The notes below the pieces were generated by a model. It worked only from the letters and a program-made list of their open reading frames with translations, was not told the origin of the DNA and searched no databases. The position numbers and the translations under genes are program-made. A stretch of DNA of 62,274 nt, the filler included, from Sphacelaria rigidula (taxonomy: Eukaryota): NCBI GenBank assembly GCA_964200075.2. It is 6 parts of 6 records of this genome, joined end to end, with 100 filler letters (N's around TTAATTAATTAA, not from the genome) between each part and the next. Parts side by side here need not be neighbours in the genome. Positions count along the whole stretch, not along the records: positions 41,586 to 51,880 come from CAXNAA020006771.1; 5 more parts are not named here. One strand, 5' to 3'. Shown piece after piece: positions 10,298 through 51,980 of this stretch (positions are counted from its first letter, which is position 1; each line of letters begins with the position of its first letter).

Positions 10298-10397
10298 NNN
10301 NNNNNNNNNNNNNNNNNNNNNNNNNNNNNNNNNNNNNNNNNTTAATTAATTAANNNNNNNNNNNNNNNNNNNNNNNNNNNNNNNNNNNNNNNNNNNN
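10298..10397. other. Artificial 100-bp contig linker (N44-TTAATTAATTAA-N44)
   Basis: N run with a six-frame stop spacer, identical in design to the four other linkers. Confidence 0.98.
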
Positions 10398-20694: not shown

Positions 20695-20794
20695 NNNNNN
20701 NNNNNNNNNNNNNNNNNNNNNNNNNNNNNNNNNNNNNNTTAATTAATTAANNNNNNNNNNNNNNNNNNNNNNNNNNNNNNNNNNNNNNNNNNNN
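20695..20794. other. Artificial 100-bp contig linker
   Basis: N run with TTAATTAATTAA. Confidence 0.98.
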
Positions 20795-31090: not shown

Positions 31091-31190
31091 NNNNNNNNNN
31101 NNNNNNNNNNNNNNNNNNNNNNNNNNNNNNNNNNTTAATTAATTAANNNNNNNNNNNNNNNNNNNNNNNNNNNNNNNNNNNNNNNNNNNN
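31091..31190. other. Artificial 100-bp contig linker
   Basis: N run with TTAATTAATTAA. Confidence 0.98.
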
Positions 31191-41485: not shown

Positions 41486-41585
41486 NNNNNNNNNNNNNNN
41501 NNNNNNNNNNNNNNNNNNNNNNNNNNNNNTTAATTAATTAANNNNNNNNNNNNNNNNNNNNNNNNNNNNNNNNNNNNNNNNNNNN
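41486..41585. other. Artificial 100-bp contig linker
   Basis: N run with TTAATTAATTAA. Confidence 0.98.
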
Positions 41586-41886
41586 GTATAGCCATCGTTT
41601 TCTCCCTACTGTCTAGTGCATCAAACGATTCCATGCCACGTTTGTTCACGTCTCGGGCGAGGGGGGGGGGGGTGAATCTGGATACAAGCTGTAGCAGGAT
41701 AACCTGGGATTCAAATGGGATAGTTTTTTTGTCTGCGTGTGTTGGTGTGTGTTTGATTACTGCACAGTATTAATCATCTGAATGGATGGATGGTGAACTC
41801 GAGGCGTCTCAATCGAACGTCTTGGATGCACGAGGTATGTTTTGATTTCATCATTTCCACGTGTCTTCCGATTTTGTCGCCGACAG

Positions 41887-44800
41887 GTGACAATGGATGA
41901 CATCACTTCTGTTGACGACCAAGTGGGCTACAACGCTAGGTGCGTTCTGACGGGTTTTTTCAGATGAGTTTGTGCAAGCGTTGCCCTAACCATCCGCGAC
42001 TTTTACCTGAGCCATGTTAGGAGGATATATCTAGGAGCAGGAAAAAACGCTCCTTCTGTTTTTCCCGCCCACAACGAACAAATAAGTACAAGAATATCGG
42101 AGTTTTATCAGTATTGGTGAAGAACATCTTGCACAAGATCGTATCTTTTTTTTCTCGGTGTCGAGATGCTTCATTTTTTTTTTCGGCACGGACAATACAA
42201 CAATTTCAGGGTTGCGGTCCTCCTGCCCACGGCCGGGGAAAACTTGGAGGTTGTGTTCAAGGCCCTTGTAGGGTCGCTGTCCCAGAGGCTGTGGGACTCG
42301 GGCCTGCCAGAGAGCCAGACTCTGCGCGTTGTTGTTCTGGACGAAAAGCGTAGGGTGGAGGTGTACCGGGTGTGCGCGGGAGTACACAAGATGGGATCGC
42401 TCATTGCCGGGAGGCGTGTTCGCCAGATTCTAATGGTGAGGAAATTATTCATGTGCTTGAGTGCCCTTTTATTCTCGTCATATTCGGTTTCGACTCGACT
42501 GCGCTTTTCTCCTCATTTTGTCCTGTTGGCTACCCGTACTGACTCGTGCCTGGACGCCTGAGTCTCTCTGGTTCCAGTCATGTTTTGAAATGAAGTTGTT
42601 TTCAATATATTTCTATTTGTAATTATTCAGTTCAATGAGTAGAGTTGGTTATTGGAGTTCGAGATCATATTCCCCCAACGGAGGTCCTCATGATGCTCTT
42701 GGTATGAGATGGACTCAAAAAACAATTCGAGAGATGGCTCTTGACTATCCCGGACGAACATTCAGGCCTGGACCCACGTTTCCTCCCTGGGACACTTGAA
42801 GCATGGATACACGTGTCCCCTCAGCAGGTCTTCACATGGCATTTGTAGTGCTCGAGAAAAAAACATCAAGGTTATTTTTTGCCTCTTCACTCCATTTTTC
42901 CTGTATGGGAGCAAAACATCGAGTTATTTCGAGCTTGCGACAGTTTTTTTTTTTTCCGGCTTTTACCCTCGCAGCGAACGACTACAAGCAGCGATGCAAT
43001 GTAAACGTGAGAAAAGGCCACGTTACGGTAGAGGGCTGATGCAAAAAAAGACAAGTCAACTTTTGAACAAAATGAATTTTATTATCATGCACTTTCGAGC
43101 ATAAGACGGGTGGTTTGATGCCATGGAAGTTCACGGAACATGTCATGACTTTTGTCTCCACCTGCGGTCGCTGCTGCTACTCCTTGACGCCTAGGCTGAG
43201 GGTGTGACGGAGCTGACTCCCAAGGGCTTCATCGACTGGTGCCGTAACGGCAGCGGGTACGAGAGGAAGCACTTATATGACGACAAGAAGCTGAACGAAG
43301 CTGTGCAGGTTGGTGTCCCGGGTTATGAGAGACATATCTGTCGATAGGCGGCGATATGCATGAAGTATATGTCCCGCTTTGCGGCTGGATGTTTTTTTTC
43401 ATTATTTACTTGGTCGGGCTGACAAGTACATGGTAAAATGAACCCCTTGGCCGCAAATGTAGTCCATCAACATCATCCATACTTTTTTCGAGTGATACTT
43501 CAGCTGGTTCAACCCATCACTTGTCATCGCCGTGAAGGAGTTAAACATGGATGATGACGGTAGGTTTGAGCCTTCGTGTCAAATCTCCGTTCACTCATTT
43601 GATCCAAACCATCCTGGCATGTTGTTGCACCGGACATAACGCATCACTTGCGCCCCCACCAGGTTCTTCGTTTGCTGGACGCCATGTGCATCGCCAACGG
43701 TCTCACCGATGCCTTCGCTCTCGAGGCGAGGCCTACCTCGGCCACGTACAACCCGGTCTCTGCGGCGGCTTGGAATGCCGCCGCGCGCGCGGAAAAAGCC
43801 AACAAGAAGAAGGAAGCCGGCGCTGGCAGCAGCGATGAGGACAGCTCGAGTGAGATGAACAAGGCGGCCAGGGCGGAAGAGGAGGCGAAGATCCTTGGAG
43901 CTCCTGCTATGACGATCGAGCCTGGTGAACCCTTTTTTATTTTACATCACTTTGCTCTTTTTTTTTCGTCCCCTTTTTATCCTAGTACTATTCGCGGACA
44001 ATTTCGCCGCTTCTCGACGTGCTCCTGCAATGATCAAGTCTAGTCAGCGTTGTTTTTATTTTTCCAGTCTTGGCAGTTTTTTTTTCATTTTTCATCCTGG
44101 CATTGTTCACCCTAAATTTTTCGCTTCTTTCGAAGTGTCGACGTGATCTTTTTTGTTGATATGGATTTACCTTCCAATGCCATAACATTCGGGACTATTA
44201 TAGATCTAGTCAACAGTTTGCAATGGGAGAAATTGTGCTGCGTGAAGTATAGACCTATCGCAACCGTCGTCGATGTGTTGTCTGGAGTGTAAATTATTTC
44301 GAAAGCCGGTCGGGGCACGTGAAAAACGTTATGCGTGGTACTCAGTATCCTTCGTGTACTAATCAATAGTTTGTCACGCTCCATACCCCCTCCCCCCTAC
44401 GTGCTCGGAAGTACTCCGGTTTCCCAGCCCCTCGTGACCCCGAGCTTCTGGGCAATTGGTCAAATCACACCGGAGCATCGTGGAGCACCATATGATACCT
44501 CGGCTTTTACTAAATCATGTTAATACGGTTTTCGAAAAAATCGTTTCATCTTGTAAATGATGATGGGTCACATGCACACGGAACCCGTGCCAGCATAATA
44601 AGTGGAGGCCAATTCGTACCTCGCCTTGAACACTTCTCAATTATTTTGGTCGAAATGAAACACCATAAAACACAGGTTTCCACCAGCTTTTCGGGGCTGG
44701 CTCTGAGACGGAGGACTCCGAAGCTGGGCAGGCGGACCTCAACCAGACCCTCCCCACCCTTGTGTACTACTCCAGGAAGGACTGCGGTCAACCCAAGATC

Positions 44801-47800
44801 AGTCCGAAGGCGGGAAACATGTGCGTTCAATACAGTAGCAGCGGGGGGGCATATTGGGAAATGGCTGCACCATCGGTCCCAGGCCGCAAAAACCTCATTC
44901 TGGAGTTGAAGGAGGAGGGTACCCGATTTTATGGGGGGAGGAGTACCCCCTGATCGTTGGATGATGGCTGCAGTAGTTTCTGCACTGCACCGCACGTGTA
45001 ATAACCTTACGCTGATTACATTTTATTTATTGGAGTCAGTATGGCGGTGGTGCAGCCATTTCCCGATATGGGGGCCCTCGTTAGAAGCGCCCAATATTTT
45101 ACATCCTGGATAATGACTATAAATTACACTGTCCGAAAGTGTTTTGCTTAAAGTATTGAATATTTTGTGTATTATCGCAAAAGTCGAGGTCTGCTTTTGA
45201 AGATTAAGGTATTGTTTCCCTCTTGGTGGAGCTTGAGTGGATGGAGAACGGGCCTGATATTATTGGGGATTTGTTACGATCACTTGACTACCTTCCCACT
45301 CAAATTTGGTCCTCATAAAGAACGTGGGCTGAACCGTGGCTCCCGTTGATGTCGCACTGGAAAGACCCCAGGTGAGTAGGTCTCGAAAACCAGATGTTGA
45401 TGTATACCTTTGAAGCTACAGTCGTCTGATTAAACCGATATATCATGTGCGTTTGAGAGGAAGAGAAAACCATCATTTTCTTCGTGTGCTCGAAATATGG
45501 ATGTACACCTCGTATGAGCGCTTCTGTTTTTGTCGCCATCATGTTTTTTTCACCAGGAATTCTGCTATCTTCCCCATGGATAACCCTGGCTCGCCTCCCC
45601 TCGTGGGAGAAGCAACCATTGTGCTGGTTAACGACGCCCGTCACCAGCTGGAGGCCAACTTTTTGCAACGCACGGTTCCCTACTTCTTCGAACTATCTAG
45701 CTCCAACGCTACAGTCTCTTCCGGCGGTCGTTACCGTTGGGCCAAGGTGAGAGAGGGGCTCAAATTTTTTTACGGTGATGTATCTTGCTTCGGGGAGGAA
45801 TCCGGTCGCGTCATTATCCATCCTGCTCTCACTCATCCAGAATTTGACCTTGATGGCGTTTTGATGGACATACCATCGCTCTTCACTTGGACTTTAGTGT
45901 TGAACATTAGATGATGACCACTGCGACAGCCCGCCAACTCCCATGAACTTATTTCCTTGTCCGTCGTGTATTATGGACGAGTTGTTCGGTGGCGGGATTT
46001 TCGTGTATTATGTGACCCTCAAGTAATCTAATTGTAGTTGTTACTTACGCGGACATGCAGTTGCTCCAAGTCATGAAATACTCCCAAGTTGATATGGAGC
46101 TATACGAAGGTGGAAGTTTTACCCACTCGAACCCAAATGTTTCTCAACGAGGGACTCACCTCTTGCGTAAAGAGCTACACAAGGATATGGATCAGGACGA
46201 TGACCACTTTTGAAGTCGCTTTCGAGCTATCTCCAAGCCCCTTCATCGGAATGGTAACGCACGTCGGACAATTCACGACCTCTCTGAAACAACTCGTCAA
46301 GGAAGATTCTCGAGCCTGTTTGTCCAAAAGGCCCAAAGAAATGACGGCGAAGTCGGATCATCCAAGCGCAACGTTTGCGCTAATGGACATGCACGGCGGC
46401 ACGCGCTGCAGGGAGGAAACGTGCAAGGGCAGGTCGAGTAGCGTATACTCGAATGCGGGGTATTTTGAAAGAGGTACTTGGGGTACTCAAATTAGGGTGG
46501 AGTCGTGGGAGTTGTACCCCAAAAAAAACTTGAGAGCGATCCCTGAAACCCTACCCCCAATTTATGTACTTGAAGTACGACTTTCAAAATACCCCGCAAT
46601 TGAGTATACTCTACTCGACCTACCCTTGAAAACGTTGAAACGGCGGGTCAACTGATCCGAATCATGGCCGAATTGTCCCGTTCTCGCGCATTTGTATTAG
46701 TGACGGGCTCCTGGAAGTCCCAATCGCATGAAAGGTTTCGTGCAACCCTACCGTGCCACGATCTCTGTGTGTCGGAGCTTTTGTCGAGTCAAAGCTTTGC
46801 GCCCGTCCCGCTGCTGATGTCTTCGCGTGCTCGTCGTGGTCATGGGGGGAAACTCAACCTGCAGATCGCGTTCGTGCAGACTCCCCAACGTTTCCGTATG
46901 GACCTCATCAACGATCCCCTTGGGAACCACGCCATCTCTCAGGTGAACAACCGTATTGCACATCTAGTACAATCATCACCTGTATGATCGTTTTTGTACG
47001 CCGTAGTTTTTCTTTGGAGTATAGTCAGTAGACCCTACGTAGTCCTGATTTTTAATTTGTGTTCCCCCTCTTATGGTAAGCCAATGCGGTCTTGTGCGGG
47101 ATGGTTTTCGTGCACCGAAGGCCAGTTTTTTTTAATGCAAAAAAACTCTGCATTCTTGACTATTTTTTTTCATGAATTGAGTAGTATCTCACGATGGAAT
47201 ACAAGTTCTGTACGAATTGATGTCGGTTTTACTACAAAATCGTACTTTTTTCAAGACAACCTTGGAATATTACGAAAGATTTTTTTTGAAAAAATTGAAA
47301 ACGGGAACCATGTTACCAGACTTGTTCCGTACATTTCGGTTGCTCGCCGCGCAGTACGATGTTATCAACCACGGCAAAGATGGTATCGGAGCCGTATCTT
47401 CCAGTGGACAGGGCAGTCTGTGGCGTATCGAGGCGCTTAAGGGGCAGCGGCCGGACGGCAGCTGCACGGAAGACCCAAAGGACTTGTCGCTTGTGGGAAA
47501 GAAGCTGGGATTCCGATCTGAGATGCTTATCGAGGATACCCATACTTCCATCGAGCTGTTCCGACAGGTGATTTTTGCTGTTCGATTGCTGTTTCTTCCG
47601 TAGTCGTATGACCATTCAACGTGCCAAGGGCGGTGGAGTCGGGGGTACAACGGTAACAACAAAGCGCAAGCATTTACCTCTGTGGTACAAATCAGTCGCA
47701 CTTTGATACTAATGATCGATTCCCTGGTTGATTATCGCACTTGAATGGATCCCCCAGTGATCCAAGGAGATAATAATCTACATGATGACTTCCCCGAGAC

Positions 47801-50800
47801 GAGAACATCACGGAAACACTCATCAAAGAAAAAAAACAGAAGAGTAAGATGGACCAACAGAGTAGCTACGGGCGAGCAGTTATTTTCAAATAAGCCATTG
47901 TTAGTACCATGTAAAAGCGTAAATTCCTAGAACTGCCCTTGTAGGAAACCAATTTCTCGCAGTGGCGACACCAGTGAGATATGCCGTATGCTCGATGAAC
48001 AGGAGGTACCGGGCCCAACTCCCGGTTTCAACCGAAAGTGACGGGAAAGTCGAGCGGAGACAAAAGAAAAGTCGTGGAAGTAGCGGGGGACGTTGGAAGC
48101 AGATTTCAGTCCAAAGGGAGACTGTTGAGCTTGGAAACCCCAGCACACCTGGAAAATATATATGAACAAATCTTTACATCGTCTCATTGATATCGGAACG
48201 ATTTCTACTGCAAACACAGTTAAAACAGTCCTCTTCTCGTAAGTATGATGTACGAAGAGGTTCACAGAGGGAAGGGGGGGCGGTATAGTCATGATTTTGC
48301 ATGCCGCAGTAGTGAGACCAGGTGATGCGGGGTACCACGACATGGGGGAGGGGGGAATTTTCCACACACGTGTCCGTCGTGTAATCACCCTTTCCTATTG
48401 TGTTTGAATTCGTTTGATTTCGGCGATTGCAGGGGTGGACAAGCCTTTACGTGAACGAACCCGGAGAGGTGCTGGCCTGGTGCACGCACCAGCCGTCCAG
48501 CCTCACGTGGCGTATCAAGCAGGTGCTACGTTGGCACCAGGGTGCCGTGCAAATCTTGCTGTTCAAGGGCATCCGCTACACCAGCTTCGGCGGGTCATTC
48601 CCCACCTTCTGGCACAGGATTTACGCATTTGATCAGGCCACGTACTACCTACAGGTGATGCATTGATTCACCACAAGCGCTCATTTTCGTTGAGGGTTTT
48701 GTTTTCGCCGTGTTCCCGTATCTTGATGAAACCGGACGTGAACGCGTTCGTGCAGGTCACCACGTACTGTATTCAGGGAATTCGAAGATGTCATGGAGGA
48801 TGGTGTTGCATCGCCATAAATACTCGATGTTGTTGATGTTCACGGTGTTCACTTACCTTGCAGTCTGTATGGTGATATATTCTTACGTGATACCATCAAC
48901 GCTTTTTTTTTGTTCCACCCCTTCTTTTTGTTTATATAACAGGCTATTCCGGGATACATGCTTCTCATCATGCCCATCATCTACGGTGTCACCGGTGTGC
49001 CCCCTTTCGTCACAAGGTAACCTTGCCCCCTCCCTCTCTCGCCCCTTTTTTTTTCAGTTTTCTAGTTCCTCAGCGAGTTTCCGTTTTGTTCACGTTGGGT
49101 CCGCCCATCTTGTGAACACGGCTGGGTATTGCGGGATCGGTTAATATGTGACAATCGATCGAATGAAATCAATAAGACGCATTTTCGAAGTTCTTGCGGC
49201 GATGTTTATCTATATTCACAAGGAAAATAAAAAAATGAAAAATGAAAAATAAAAAAGGGGATCTAGAACTGCGTCGGCGGCCGGCGGTATAAATTCAGTC
49301 GAAGCTTGCAACGTGACATTTTCTCCTCTTTGTTCGATGTTCTGTGCGTGTTATTATTCATGTGTCACAAAACAGGCTGGACACGTACTTCCAGTTTTTC
49401 ATGCCCTTCATCGTGACGGCACTGCTGCCCACCGCCATTTCCAGCCAGTGGAGAAAGATCGACTCTCACCGACTTACCCGTGATGAGCAGACGTGGCTCT
49501 CCACTACCTACGTGCAGATCTACGCCTTCCTGCAGGTGGGTGATACAGAAAAAAACCGGGAACGACACGGTTTGGGCACGTTGAAAATATTCCAGTGATG
49601 GTGGTGGTGACGGTCAGAGTGATGCACGACTTCCGTCTGTGGGAAGTTCGGTTGCCATTTCCGATGCGATGGGTGTCTTCCTCGATCTGATTTCCATCGT
49701 CAGGAGTGTGATGGAGCGAACATGCAAAAAGCAGTCGAGTGCGAGCGTTTCCGTGGTACGGATGAGAGCTGATCCGATCCGGGAGACCGAAATGCAAGGC
49801 GTGCTCTGAAAGAGATTTGGGTTGGTTCGACGAGATCACGGACTCGCCGAGGAAGGGGCGGGGGGGAGTAGCGCGTACTCATCTGTTGCTTGCCTTGGTC
49901 GTTTGACCATTGACCACACCCCCCGTTGGAGATGGAGCATACGGGGGGAGGTTGGGTTGTAATACAAAAATAAAATAAAATGTCGCTCGAGAAAGCATGT
50001 ACCTATATATTGCATCACTTGCGAGATAAAATAACTTGCGTTCTTCCCGAGTTCCCAAACCTGTAACTGATCACGTTATCGACATGTTCTCCCTTTGATC
50101 AGTTTTCAAGGCCGATTTGTGGCGCATGGTCAAGCGAGGAGGGTTGAAGAAAATCGCTCACAGTGAGCAATATGCAACACATCCTCGTCTCTGTGTGGTG
50201 GAGTAAGTTGAAATCGTCACGACAGCTCGGATTTTTCCAAAGCCAGTTTTTCACAGATAAGTGTGCGTCTACTTTTTTGTGTCCTCTTGTGATGCGTTTA
50301 TTTCTGTCTCTCAATGTGCCTTTTAAAGGTGTTCTGGACTGCCATGACCAGGAAAAACGCTGAAAACGCGTGGGTCGCCAAGGTTCCCACTTGGCCCCTC
50401 ACCGTGGTATTCATAGGCCAAGTGGCGGGTGTTGCTGGAGGAGCTTACTGGGTCATTGAAAAATGTGAGTTGGGAACGTCTTGAGTGAAGGGAATGAAAC
50501 GTGGTTCTTGTGCTTGTCATGGGCCTGCAGCTTCGTGATGGAGGATGTTATTCTGCTGTCAGTAGTCATCTGGAAATTGTCGTTCTGATGTTGAGTATGT
50601 CTTTTCATACTGATTTATTCGTCACTCCTCGACTCCTCCCCTTCTTCGGGATGGAGTCCGTGGTCTCGGGGTATCAACTCACCGCTCTCCTCCCTCCGTA
50701 TTGCAGCCGGTGATCGTAGTAAACGTTACTTGCATGGTGTGTATACGTACAATTGTATCGCGGTATACAGCGGTCGCCCCGGTGGCTCAGTTGGTAACCT

Positions 50801-51383
50801 CGAAACCTTCTGGTGGTTGGGTCGTCGGTTCAGATCTCGGTGCGATCTGGGATTTTTTCCCACACCATGCCCAACAGCAGCGGGGAGCGACCATGTCGTT
50901 GGTACATCAAATTCAACTTCACGGTCGACAATGGAAAGGAACTGCCGTACCCCTCCCGCGATTTCACAAAAAAAATGAGAGGCAAGCACCGCAGGAGGAA
51001 GGTAGAGTACTAAGACAAACAAAAAAGAAGTATACCCCCGGGTCGACATTCCTCCTACGTGACCCCGGCTGGTGCGTCCACATAGACCGGCGTCCAGAAT
51101 AGGTGGGACGATAACACACACATATCGTGACACCAAAATCCTGTCTCATTTCCGATAGGAAATTCAGACGAAAAAATCGCGGTTGAAGTGAAAACGGCGG
51201 GATTTTTCCCACTCTCTATTATTCTGCTCGCGCATATTGTAATTTTACCCTCCATCAGCTTTCGTGAAGTGGTACGCCAACTTCTTCAGTATCCTTGTGG
51301 TATGCGGATTGGCCATGCACGCGCTGTGGCCCATGGTGTCTCTCAGCCTCGGGTGGAGCATCCCGTCCTTCTACTACATCAAG
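41887..51383 (+). CDS. CESA: Cellulose synthase / cellulose synthase-like processive GT2 glycosyltransferase (partial, 13 exons, 666 codons)
   Basis: GT-AG exons in continuous frame: 41887-41939, 42210-42435 (VAVLLPTAGE...VVVLDE), 43195-43308, 43663-43924, 44676-44820 (YYSRK...PKAGNM), 45557-45746 (VLVNDARHQLEANFLQRTVPYF), 46865-46942 (IAFVQTPQRF..DPLGN), 47355-47567 (GKDG..SSSGQGSLWRIEAL...GFRSEMLIEDTHTS), 48433-48654 (GWTSLY...QVLRWHQG), then 48943-49016, 49376-49535, 50329-50464 and 51259-51383 (hydrophobic TM segments). No start or stop found in the contig. The symbol denotes the family; cellulose product is not demonstrated. Confidence 0.93.
44845..45078. mobile_element. Small MITE-like inverted-repeat element in a CESA intron
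   Basis: CATATTGGGAAATGGCTGCACCATCG (~44850-44875) is inverted at CGGTGGTGCAGCCATTTCCCGATATG (~45045-45070). Confidence 0.7.
46424..46628. mobile_element. 205-bp MITE with ~48-bp TIRs and imperfect 8-bp TSD, in a CESA intron
   Basis: CAAGGGCAGGTCGAGTAGCGTATACTCGAATGCGGGGTATTTTGAAAG versus CTTTCAAAATACCCCGCAATTGAGTATACTCTACTCGACCTACCCTTG; flanks GAAACGTG and AAAACGTT. Confidence 0.85.
50769..51122 (+). mobile_element. tRNA-derived SINE family 1, full-length, in a CESA intron
   Basis: Box A TGGCTCAGTTGG, box B GGTTCAGATC, ~350-bp body and (CA)n tail; colinear with 57330-57688. Confidence 0.8.
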
Positions 51384-51880
51384 GTCAGTCGTTGGTACGC
51401 GTGTGGAATGTGTGTAGATGATCACTGTTGTTCTTCCTTGTTTTCGTCTCTTGCTTTTGGTACTCATGGCGAGCCCTTCAAAAGTTGACATGATGAATTT
51501 CGCGTCAAGCATGTCCCGTGATCCTTGTCCCCTAGACGACTTCAATCAGGACCATTTCCCACGACCAACGGCTTGCTTGCTGTCTGGTCTCATCAAAAAC
51601 TAACCCTCTTTCAACTATTTTTTCGCCGTTTTCTTCTGCTTGTGTCCCTCGTGGTCATGGACTGCACCGAGGTTGGTCTTCTTTCCCCAACATGTGAAAG
51701 AACATGAATGTTGGCAGGGGTCGTTTCAAGTTTGTCATTTCCCTCCTTCCCCTGATCCGACAGAGTTTTGTCATGTACCAATGCCGCCGCATGGAAGATC
51801 CGAAAAATTATATCCCAGTGAGGCCACTTCTTATAATGGACAAAAAAAAACCTGGAAAAGTGTCTTTTTGGAGCTTTTAC

Positions 51881-51980
51881 NNNNNNNNNNNNNNNNNNNN
51901 NNNNNNNNNNNNNNNNNNNNNNNNTTAATTAATTAANNNNNNNNNNNNNNNNNNNNNNNNNNNNNNNNNNNNNNNNNNNN
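51881..51980. other. Artificial 100-bp contig linker
   Basis: N run with TTAATTAATTAA. Confidence 0.98.

Follow-up and report, generated by a model that had tools for sequence, protein, structure and literature searches.

Cellulose, chitin and hyaluronan synthases have been described with one catalytic design, built on a DxD motif with its divalent cation, a TED motif, a QxxRW motif and a gating loop, and reviews treat DD, DxD, TED, QxxRW and FxVTxK as universal for the enzyme class (including PMC10592267 and PMC6821405). In poplar CesA8, the uridine lies between a Glu and the Lys of KAG, and the Asp of DDG makes a hydrogen bond to the uracil; both Asp residues of DxD hold a Mg2+ in contact with the beta-phosphate, the Arg of QxxRW is salt-bridged to the diphosphate, the donor-sugar pocket is shaped by YVGTG and VTED, and the Thr and Lys of the gating loop touch the alpha- and beta-phosphates (PMC10592267). 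In bacterial BcsA the gating-loop Lys is essential, even its replacement by Arg giving an inactive enzyme (PMC10592267). Of the two Asp residues of DAD the last acts via Mg2+ while the first stacks on the ribose (PMC10374906). Here we analyse a member of this family from the brown alga Sphacelaria rigidula, found in a window (the whole stretch of DNA under study) of 62,274 nucleotides made of joined parts of assembly GCA_964200075.2. The window is eukaryotic DNA with a G+C content of about 48%, and the gene lies in the part that comes from CAXNAA020006771.1 (positions 41586-51880). Its DxD position reads N-D-A-R-H, and we compare this altered active site with those of the described synthases.

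The N-D-A-R-H motif is encoded by AAC GAC GCC CGT CAC at 45630-45644 on the plus strand, as a literal string check in the sequence showed, and the Arg codon CGT at 45639-45641 is two positions away from GAT/GAC. In a profile alignment the residues vvvnDaRhqL lie over VLNVDCDHYI of plant CESA with high posterior (domain 42.3 bits, independent E-value 2.6e-10), and phmmer placed the same residues over VVFDADHVP of BcsA, with KAGNMNA as an anchor against KAGAMNA / KAGNMSA. The Arg occupies the position of the last, metal-ligand Asp of DxD, over the final Asp of both DCD in plant CESA and DAD in BcsA, and the ligand Asp expected of the family is absent. The first Asp is kept, since the D of N-D-A-R-H aligns with the D of DCDH / DADH, so that within the acidic pair the second Asp alone has been replaced. 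The classical "D,D,D,QxxRW" signature, as worded in the literature, counts the first Asp of DxD only and is complete here, which may be why the Arg change went unremarked. The initial annotation of this locus had read the Arg in the same way, and the strings on which it relied (NDARH, IEDT at 47529-47540, QVLRW at 48520-48534, VSSSGQGS and AWVAKVP) are all present, those that it gave with coordinates at exactly those positions.

A search with the exon that carries QVLRW returned 45 proteins at E<=1e-3 among 63 candidates, and the named matches, labelled "GT2" or "cellulose synthase, family GT2", come from the brown algae Laminaria, Ectocarpus, Discosporangium, Choristocarpus and Ascophyllum and, beyond the brown algae, from Tribonema and Vaucheria (Xanthophyceae) and Phaeothamnion. 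Over the spliced model, identity reaches 91.1% with P0003, its closest full-length relative, 88.4% with P0002, 82.8% with P0008 of Ectocarpus and 61.7% with P0014, which represents a shorter paralogue type in Ectocarpus. By Pfam, P0003 scores 70.7 bits with PF03552 Cellulose_synt (cut-off 24.7) and 46.7 bits with PF13632 (cut-off 27); the QVLRW exon of the window, taken alone, reaches 21.4 bits and stays under the PF03552 cut-off. Pfam found no zf-UDP (PF14569) on P0003, the window itself being without the N-terminal exons, and no PilZ (PF07238) on P0003 either, a domain that the BcsA-like P0113 and P0145 do have. A profile of 22 full-length members, compared with solved structures, matched plant CESAs best (E 1.9e-21), then CslF6 and BcsA. 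An AlphaFold2 (AF2) model of P0014, which is not the window gene, had poplar CesA8 (8g2j) as its top match (E 8e-14, TM-score 0.50-0.60), followed by soybean CesAs, CslF6 and BcsA, and ranks 1-21 of the Foldseek comparison were all cellulose synthases or CslF6 (E 8e-14 to 5e-7, TM-score 0.40-0.60); the model is of moderate quality, with a mean pLDDT of 62 and loops 446-495 and 528-564 below 50. A homologue search from alignment A2 matched only a query member. The gene is thus a brown-algal CESA-family GT2 in which a GT-A domain is fused to a transmembrane (TM) channel; Pfam on P0003 and the profile and phmmer alignments agree with the CESA/BcsA-type assignment of the initial annotation. By homology and fold it is a member of the GT2 cellulose synthase family, and two hallmarks of that family's mechanism are missing from it, namely the Asp that serves as metal ligand and the gating loop.

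Neither departure is peculiar to this gene. Searching 1.84 billion representative proteins with the profile returned 1383 matches at E<=1e-3, 68 of them at E<=1e-30, and the exon and profile searches together yielded 184 proteins, of which 86 span all five motif columns. The third DxD position is Arg in 72 of these 86 relatives, which read [N/D]-D-x-R. The raw Arg count from hmmalign was 73 (NDARH 44, NDCRH 20, NDVRH 2, and seven other forms); one of these, P0168, read by hmmalign as NDMRP, was rejected as an R-type because MAFFT shows LDNDM, and it was counted as DxD-type. The remaining sequences that cover the site have Asp in 12 cases and Lys in the degenerate P0057. The finger helix reads IED in 35, VED in 6 and TED in one of the R-type sequences covering it, and TED in 129/130 of the D-type sequences. 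We aligned 22 R-type clade members with 17 canonical relatives of the DxD type using MAFFT, and in the tree built from them (IQ-TREE, LG+G4, quick search, 39 rows, 492 columns, motif columns included) the 22 R-type sequences form one clade with an SH-aLRT of 100 and a stem of 1.26 changes per site. The question raised at the outset, whether NDARH defines a conserved clade or whether orthologues would read DAD or DCD, is answered in favour of the former, and the contigs examined for this locus also read Arg.

The alignment shows that the DxD site did not change alone. From canonical relatives to the R-type clade, [L/F]D[A/C/N]D[H/M] becomes VND[A/C]RH, LDDG becomes LDEK(R)R, with the Asp kept and the second Asp and Gly turned into Glu and Lys, HAKAGN becomes SPKAGN, F[Y/A][T/A]G[T/S]x (YVGTG) becomes SS[S/C]G[Q/H]GS, TED becomes [I/V]ED (VTED to L[I/V]ED, with IED at 47529-47537 in our gene), and Q[R/K]xRW becomes Q[V/L/I][L/F/Y]RW. 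The SSSGQG and IED variants singled out by the initial annotation are accordingly clade-wide. The gating loop differs as well: a motif of the F/W-x-V-T-x-K/E kind occurs in 15/17 DxD-type sequences, the other two being truncated or degenerate, against no conserved counterpart of FxVTxK in the 22 R-type sequences of the 39-sequence alignment, where an invariant A-W...P-x-W-P-L follows the site instead. AWVAKVP, which had been noted at about this position, lies at 50368-50388. We also considered TAMTRK, which phmmer pairs with plant FTVTSK, as a counterpart of the gating motif and rejected it, since it is lineage-specific and other members read LTRG, LRCQ or FTCA at this point. As judged from the sequences compared, the odd motifs are the signature of one ochrophyte clade that comprises brown algae, Xanthophyceae, Phaeothamnion and their relatives.

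Among the 22 full-length members of this clade, which share 42-83% identity with the first, D415, R417 and H418 never vary, nor do the Asp of LDE, E-D-T-H-T, QVLRWHQGAVQ, QTPQ.F and K-A-G-N; the catalytic Asp and the Glu of the finger helix and the Q, R and W of QxxRW do not vary either. Conserved counterparts of the canonical contacts are found in the Glu of PTAGE, the Asp of LDE, the Lys of KAG, the D and H of D-x-R-H, the Asp of IED, and the Arg and Trp of QVLRW. This bears on the idea that the protein is a non-catalytic subunit of a synthase complex, a pseudo-enzyme or scaffold. Canonical enzymes cannot work without the metal ligand or the gating loop, both of which are gone here, COSMC in GT31 offers a precedent (PMC7185993), and P0053 (NLCRH) and P0057 (most motifs lost) are further degraded; but a catalytic Asp, QxxRW, QTPQRF, KAG and uracil Asp that stay invariant at only 42-83% identity to the first member argue against it, as does the fact that all sampled full-length clade members share the variant, with no canonical partner of the same clade seen. 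We regard such a role as quite improbable. As for the two degraded sequences themselves, P0053 shows no QxxRW in the alignment and P0057 has lost KAG, DxR, ED and QxxRW, and each may be a pseudo-enzyme or a mispredicted gene.

The Arg codon is real and the gene is in use. Contigs of four public runs were aligned to 41586-51880, namely X1-X3 from one study and X5, a DNA run from another study and possibly the source run of the assembly itself. Introns with GT..AG ends are skipped in 12/12 cases in the X1 contigs, 11/12 in X2 and 11/12 in X3, and in no case in the DNA run X5, so that the gene is transcribed and spliced as modelled, contrary to one way in which the initial proposal might have failed. 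Over the NDARH exon (45557-45744) three spliced RNA-like contigs and one DNA contig have 0 differing letters and no variant is listed; as two studies agree, the Arg codon is not a base-calling error, and the observation that CGT is two substitutions from an Asp codon holds. One might suspect an error of sequencing or assembly, or a pseudogene copy in decay, given that the 5' exons were not found in 41.8 kb upstream. Yet 666 open codons with canonical splice sites, spliced transcripts that reach 1143-1235 nt further 5', the same CGT in the contigs of two studies and an Arg common to 72 relatives leave this explanation with a vanishingly small chance overall, and for the Arg codon it is refuted.

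The uridine-binding residues, the catalytic Asp and QxxRW are kept, and the two elements that hold the diphosphate via or beside the metal, the DxD Asp and the gating loop, are changed together; for the former reason we read the protein as an active synthase with re-wired diphosphate handling. At a probability of roughly one half, we take the locus to encode a transcribed CESA-family GT2 with a whole GT domain and a C-terminal channel, most likely the cellulose synthase of this lineage, that would be active with an Arg serving in place of an Asp-Mg2+ pair in diphosphate handling. Such a synthase would retain a UDP-sugar donor and handle the diphosphate leaving group differently. The guanidinium of the Arg would sit about where the Asp-Mg2+ pair sits in canonical enzymes and could contact the beta-phosphate directly; it would bring the same net charge of +1, and Arg exceeds Asp in length by about 3 Å. 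Phosphate binding may be assisted by the additional Lys/Arg after LDE, and catalysis could be wholly or largely free of divalent cation. By analogy it is plausible that the Arg stands in for the Asp-Mg2+ pair, and its presence throughout the clade suggests that these algae build a wall glucan with a re-wired, possibly metal-free active site. More tentatively, and with doubts outweighing confidence, we propose that brown and yellow-green algae may use a cation-free processive GT2 cellulose synthase in which the Arg and the new Lys/Arg would take over the binding and expulsion of UDP from both the Asp-Mg2+ pair and the Lys of the gating loop.

The same residues can be read in a more conservative way, in which the enzyme is an ordinary metal-dependent cellulose synthase, the Arg is structural or regulatory (for instance by pairing in a salt bridge with the first Asp or with LDEK's Glu), and the cation is held by the remaining Asp, the His and the diphosphate. 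D-x-R-H keeps its first Asp and its His without exception, and the counterpart of this His in BcsA lies near the metal (PMC6821405); both DxD Asp residues of CesA8 bind Mg2+, so that one ligand would be left (PMC10592267), and some GT14 enzymes are metal-stimulated though not metal-dependent (PMC3961637). However, a fixed cationic side chain at a ligand position should repel a divalent cation, and the loss of the gating Lys/Thr together with the gain of Lys/Arg after LDE suggests that phosphate binding was re-wired more broadly and speaks against a neutral swap. We therefore hold metal dependence of the usual kind to be rather unlikely, if the most serious of the alternatives considered here.

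With regard to the product, cellulose appears the most economical choice, since the cellulose-walled Tribonema and Vaucheria have several members of the clade, and the published brown-algal candidates for mixed-linkage glucan (MLG) synthesis are separate BcsA-like GT2 genes outside the R-type clade (PMC10374906, PMC5460208). An active processive GT2 with another polymer or donor, making either MLG with a DP3 repeat or mannuronan, the alginate precursor, from GDP-ManA, would fit the altered motifs of the donor-sugar pocket (YVGTG to SSSGQG, VTED to LIED). MLG occurs in brown algae and alginate has been reported from relatives that include some Xanthophyceae (PMC5460208), the mannuronan synthase is described as unidentified and thought to be a GT2 (PMC11468063), and the named clade members belong to the same algal group as the alginate-bearing lineages. 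On the other hand, the uridine contacts (PTxxE Glu, KAG Lys and LDE Asp) are kept, which argues for a UDP donor, and QxxRW is kept with its Trp; these points, the copies in cellulose-walled algae and the separate identity of the MLG candidates make another product distinctly unlikely, though less so than a non-catalytic role.

Several points weigh against an active cellulose synthase with Arg-based diphosphate handling. All the motif changes fall on one stem branch, so their co-occurrence amounts to one event and is no proof of functional coupling. The AF2 model is weak in the active-site loops, and the reach of the Arg to the beta-phosphate is a geometric argument only; the loss of the gating loop would be just as consistent with another mode of action or a different function. 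Literature searches found no biochemical result for any clade member, brown-algal CESA/CSL proteins are called putative and unvalidated by Mazeas 2024 (PMC11468063), and brown algae also carry BcsA-like GT2 genes that are possible cellulose makers (PMC5460208). The RNA nature of X1-X3 is a guessed label, for which reason the splice joints were relied on instead. Finally, the gene model is incomplete in the window.

That model was built from 13 collinear pieces on the plus strand, located by tblastn with the nearest full-length relatives as queries and bounded by a splice-site search that maximised similarity; all 13 exons have an AG acceptor and a GT donor. Spliced together from 41887-41939 to 51259-51383, they give 1998 nt, or 666 codons with 0 stops. 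There is no contiguous open reading frame (ORF) in the window that links NDARH, IEDT and QVLRW. The "intact 666-codon frame" of the initial annotation thus stands as 666 codons free of stops once 13 exons are spliced, which it must have joined correctly in reading the sequence; it does not stand as a contiguous ORF, and it covers a partial model without the N-terminal third.

Exon a (41887..41939) is the first exon located and starts with VTMDD, just after the second TM helix of the relatives; besides tblastn and the splice model, spliced contigs support it by aligning exactly 53 nt to the left of the joint 41939/42210. Exon b (42210..42435), whose joint is seen in X1-X3, encodes LLPTAGE, that is beta-1 with the PTxxE motif, and LDEKRR at 42337-42354, the counterpart of DDG. 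Exons c (43195..43308), d (43663..43924) and e (44676..44820) were each placed by tblastn, the splice model and contig joints; d holds a clade-specific insert region of low conservation and e ends within SPKAGNMN, the KAG lysine motif being split by an intron. The string check, the profile and phmmer alignments and the contigs all bear on exon f (45557..45746), which carries N-D-A-R-H at the DxD position. Exon g (46865..46942; tblastn, splice model, contig joints) encodes VQTPQRF at 46877-46894, while exon h (47355..47567; contig joints) contains VSSSGQGS at 47394-47417, the counterpart of YVGTG/FFCGS, and IEDT, the counterpart of VTED with the catalytic Asp. QVLRWHQGAVQ, on interface helix 2, belongs to exon i (48433..48654), identified by the string check, homology and contig joints. 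Exons j (48943..49016) and k (49376..49535) encode TM regions, the latter with RDEQTWLSTTYVQ, and rest on tblastn, the splice model and contig joints. The site of the canonical FxVTxK gating loop falls in exon l (50329..50464; contig joints), with TAMTRK at 50338-50355 followed by AWVAKVP and the clade-invariant A-W...P-T-W-P-L. Exon m (51259..51383), tied to exon l by the joint 50464/51259 in X1-X3, is the last exon located and ends with FYYIK before a GT donor, all 13 exons lying on the plus strand.

In relatives, VTMDD is preceded by about 383 residues, among them the first two TM helices. For the corresponding 5' exons (about 380 codons), tblastn with P0002, P0003, P0007 and P0008 (E<=10, word size 2) and with the 45 proteins of the first search (E<=1) gave nothing credible before 41860, and the same queries gave nothing credible after 51410, where a last exon, some 18 codons long, escaped detection. 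The spliced contigs run 1143-1235 nt further 5' of exon a, a length that fits the missing N-terminal part. With the 5' and last exons not found, the window covers only part of the gene, namely the catalytic domain and most of the channel. The absence of the 5' exons from the 41.8 kb upstream (1-41886) would be accounted for by a very long intron or by an assembly mis-join.

A few further observations concern the contigs and the surroundings of the gene. A single X1 contig (depth 1905) skips 69 nt in frame at 48495-48565, which would delete QVLRW; the shorter side of this joint is 29 nt and the skipped piece ends TC..TC, so an assembly artefact is likely. In X5 the summed contig depth reaches 2e5-7e5 at 41586-41929, 46402-46745, 49842-50185 and 50530-51217, against about 60-100 over the exons; these intronic and flanking stretches are high-copy repeats at which the DNA contigs break, and many chimeric joints connect 46.4-46.6 kb with 50.77 kb at such repeats. 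Paired runs of 44 N, with 12 bases between them and a period of about 10,396, occur at 10298-10397, 20695-20794, 31091-31190, 41486-41585 and 51881-51980 and resemble masking, not assembly gaps. No neighbouring gene was recognised by Pfam (E<=1e-3) among 66 stop-to-stop ORFs of at least 110 amino acids outside 41887-51383. In Ectocarpus, P0008 of the long type and P0014 of the short type share the same longest contig figure of 197,641 bp, which suggests neighbouring genes. One R-type domain (NDCRH, VED, QVLRW) is part of P0032, a protein of 1738 amino acids from a metagenome/Logan source in which an IQ motif and a myosin head (PF00063, E 1e-154) are joined to it, a fusion reminiscent of the myosin-motor chitin synthases of fungi.

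To our knowledge, no metal-independent member of the cellulose, chitin and hyaluronan synthase class has been described, and our literature searches found none. The motif strings VNDARH, VNDCRH, SSSGQGS and LIEDTHTS had 0 occurrences in a full-text literature search, and full-text searches turned up no account of stramenopile CESAs in which DxD carries an Arg, although Michel et al. 2010 and supplementary alignments (PMC11468063, PMC4023592) lay outside their scope and could hold it. An entire lineage of algae in which base and acceptor site are kept, with the metal ligand replaced and the gating loop lost, amounts to a natural experiment on which parts of the common design are dispensable. 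The re-wired site may explain the lack of biochemical validation of brown-algal CESAs. In practical terms, the signature of N-D-x-R-H, [I/V]ED and A-W..P-x-W-P-L sorts stramenopile GT2 genes and would aid the search for the brown-algal cellulose, mixed-linkage-glucan and mannuronan synthases.

Among described systems, the plant CESAs (poplar CesA8, 6WLB/8G27/8G2J, and soybean, 8VI0) are the best matches of the clade in the PDB by both sequence and fold. Like it, they have a TM channel into which a GT-A domain is inserted, and their motifs follow in the same order, with QVLRW identical and QxPQRF, the lysine of KAG and the catalytic Asp in place; they differ in that DCDH is replaced by NDARH, DDG by LDEK, YVGTG by SSSGQG and VTED by LIED, and FTVTxK is missing; the identity is 15-17% over the fold alignment of the P0014 model, and zf-UDP was not found on P0003. 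With BcsA of Rhodobacter sphaeroides (4HG6/4P00) the clade has in common the D,D,D,QxxRW core and a region of finger helix and interface helix 2 (IF2) that aligns at E of about 1e-10, whereas P0003 has no PilZ, DADH has become NDARH, TED has become IED, and FxVTxK is absent. The nearest relatives outside the clade in the search of 1.84 billion proteins are cyanobacterial cellulose-synthase-like GT2s (P0069 and its relatives, from Calothrix, Nostocaceae and Lyngbya among others; E of about 1e-41), which the tree places in the DxD-type group, across from the R-type clade. Unlike the clade, they read LDADH in 118/118 sequences covering the site, have TED, QRLRW and FQVTPK, and carry an N-terminal HATPase-like domain. 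For the possible mode of action the closest parallels lie elsewhere. Bacterial GT6 (BoGT6a) is metal-independent, with NXN in place of DXD and Lys231 and Arg243 on the diphosphate, and GT14 (C2GnT-L) has lost DxD, is likewise metal-independent and places Arg378 and Lys401 on the diphosphate (PMC3961637, PMC7185993). The clade may resemble them in binding the diphosphate by a cationic side chain, a likeness in mode of action that we draw from sequence; they belong, however, to other CAZy families and are soluble or type-II proteins, not processive membrane synthases, and their cationic residues come from the C-terminus, while the Arg of the algal clade sits in the DxD itself, where only the second Asp has been replaced.

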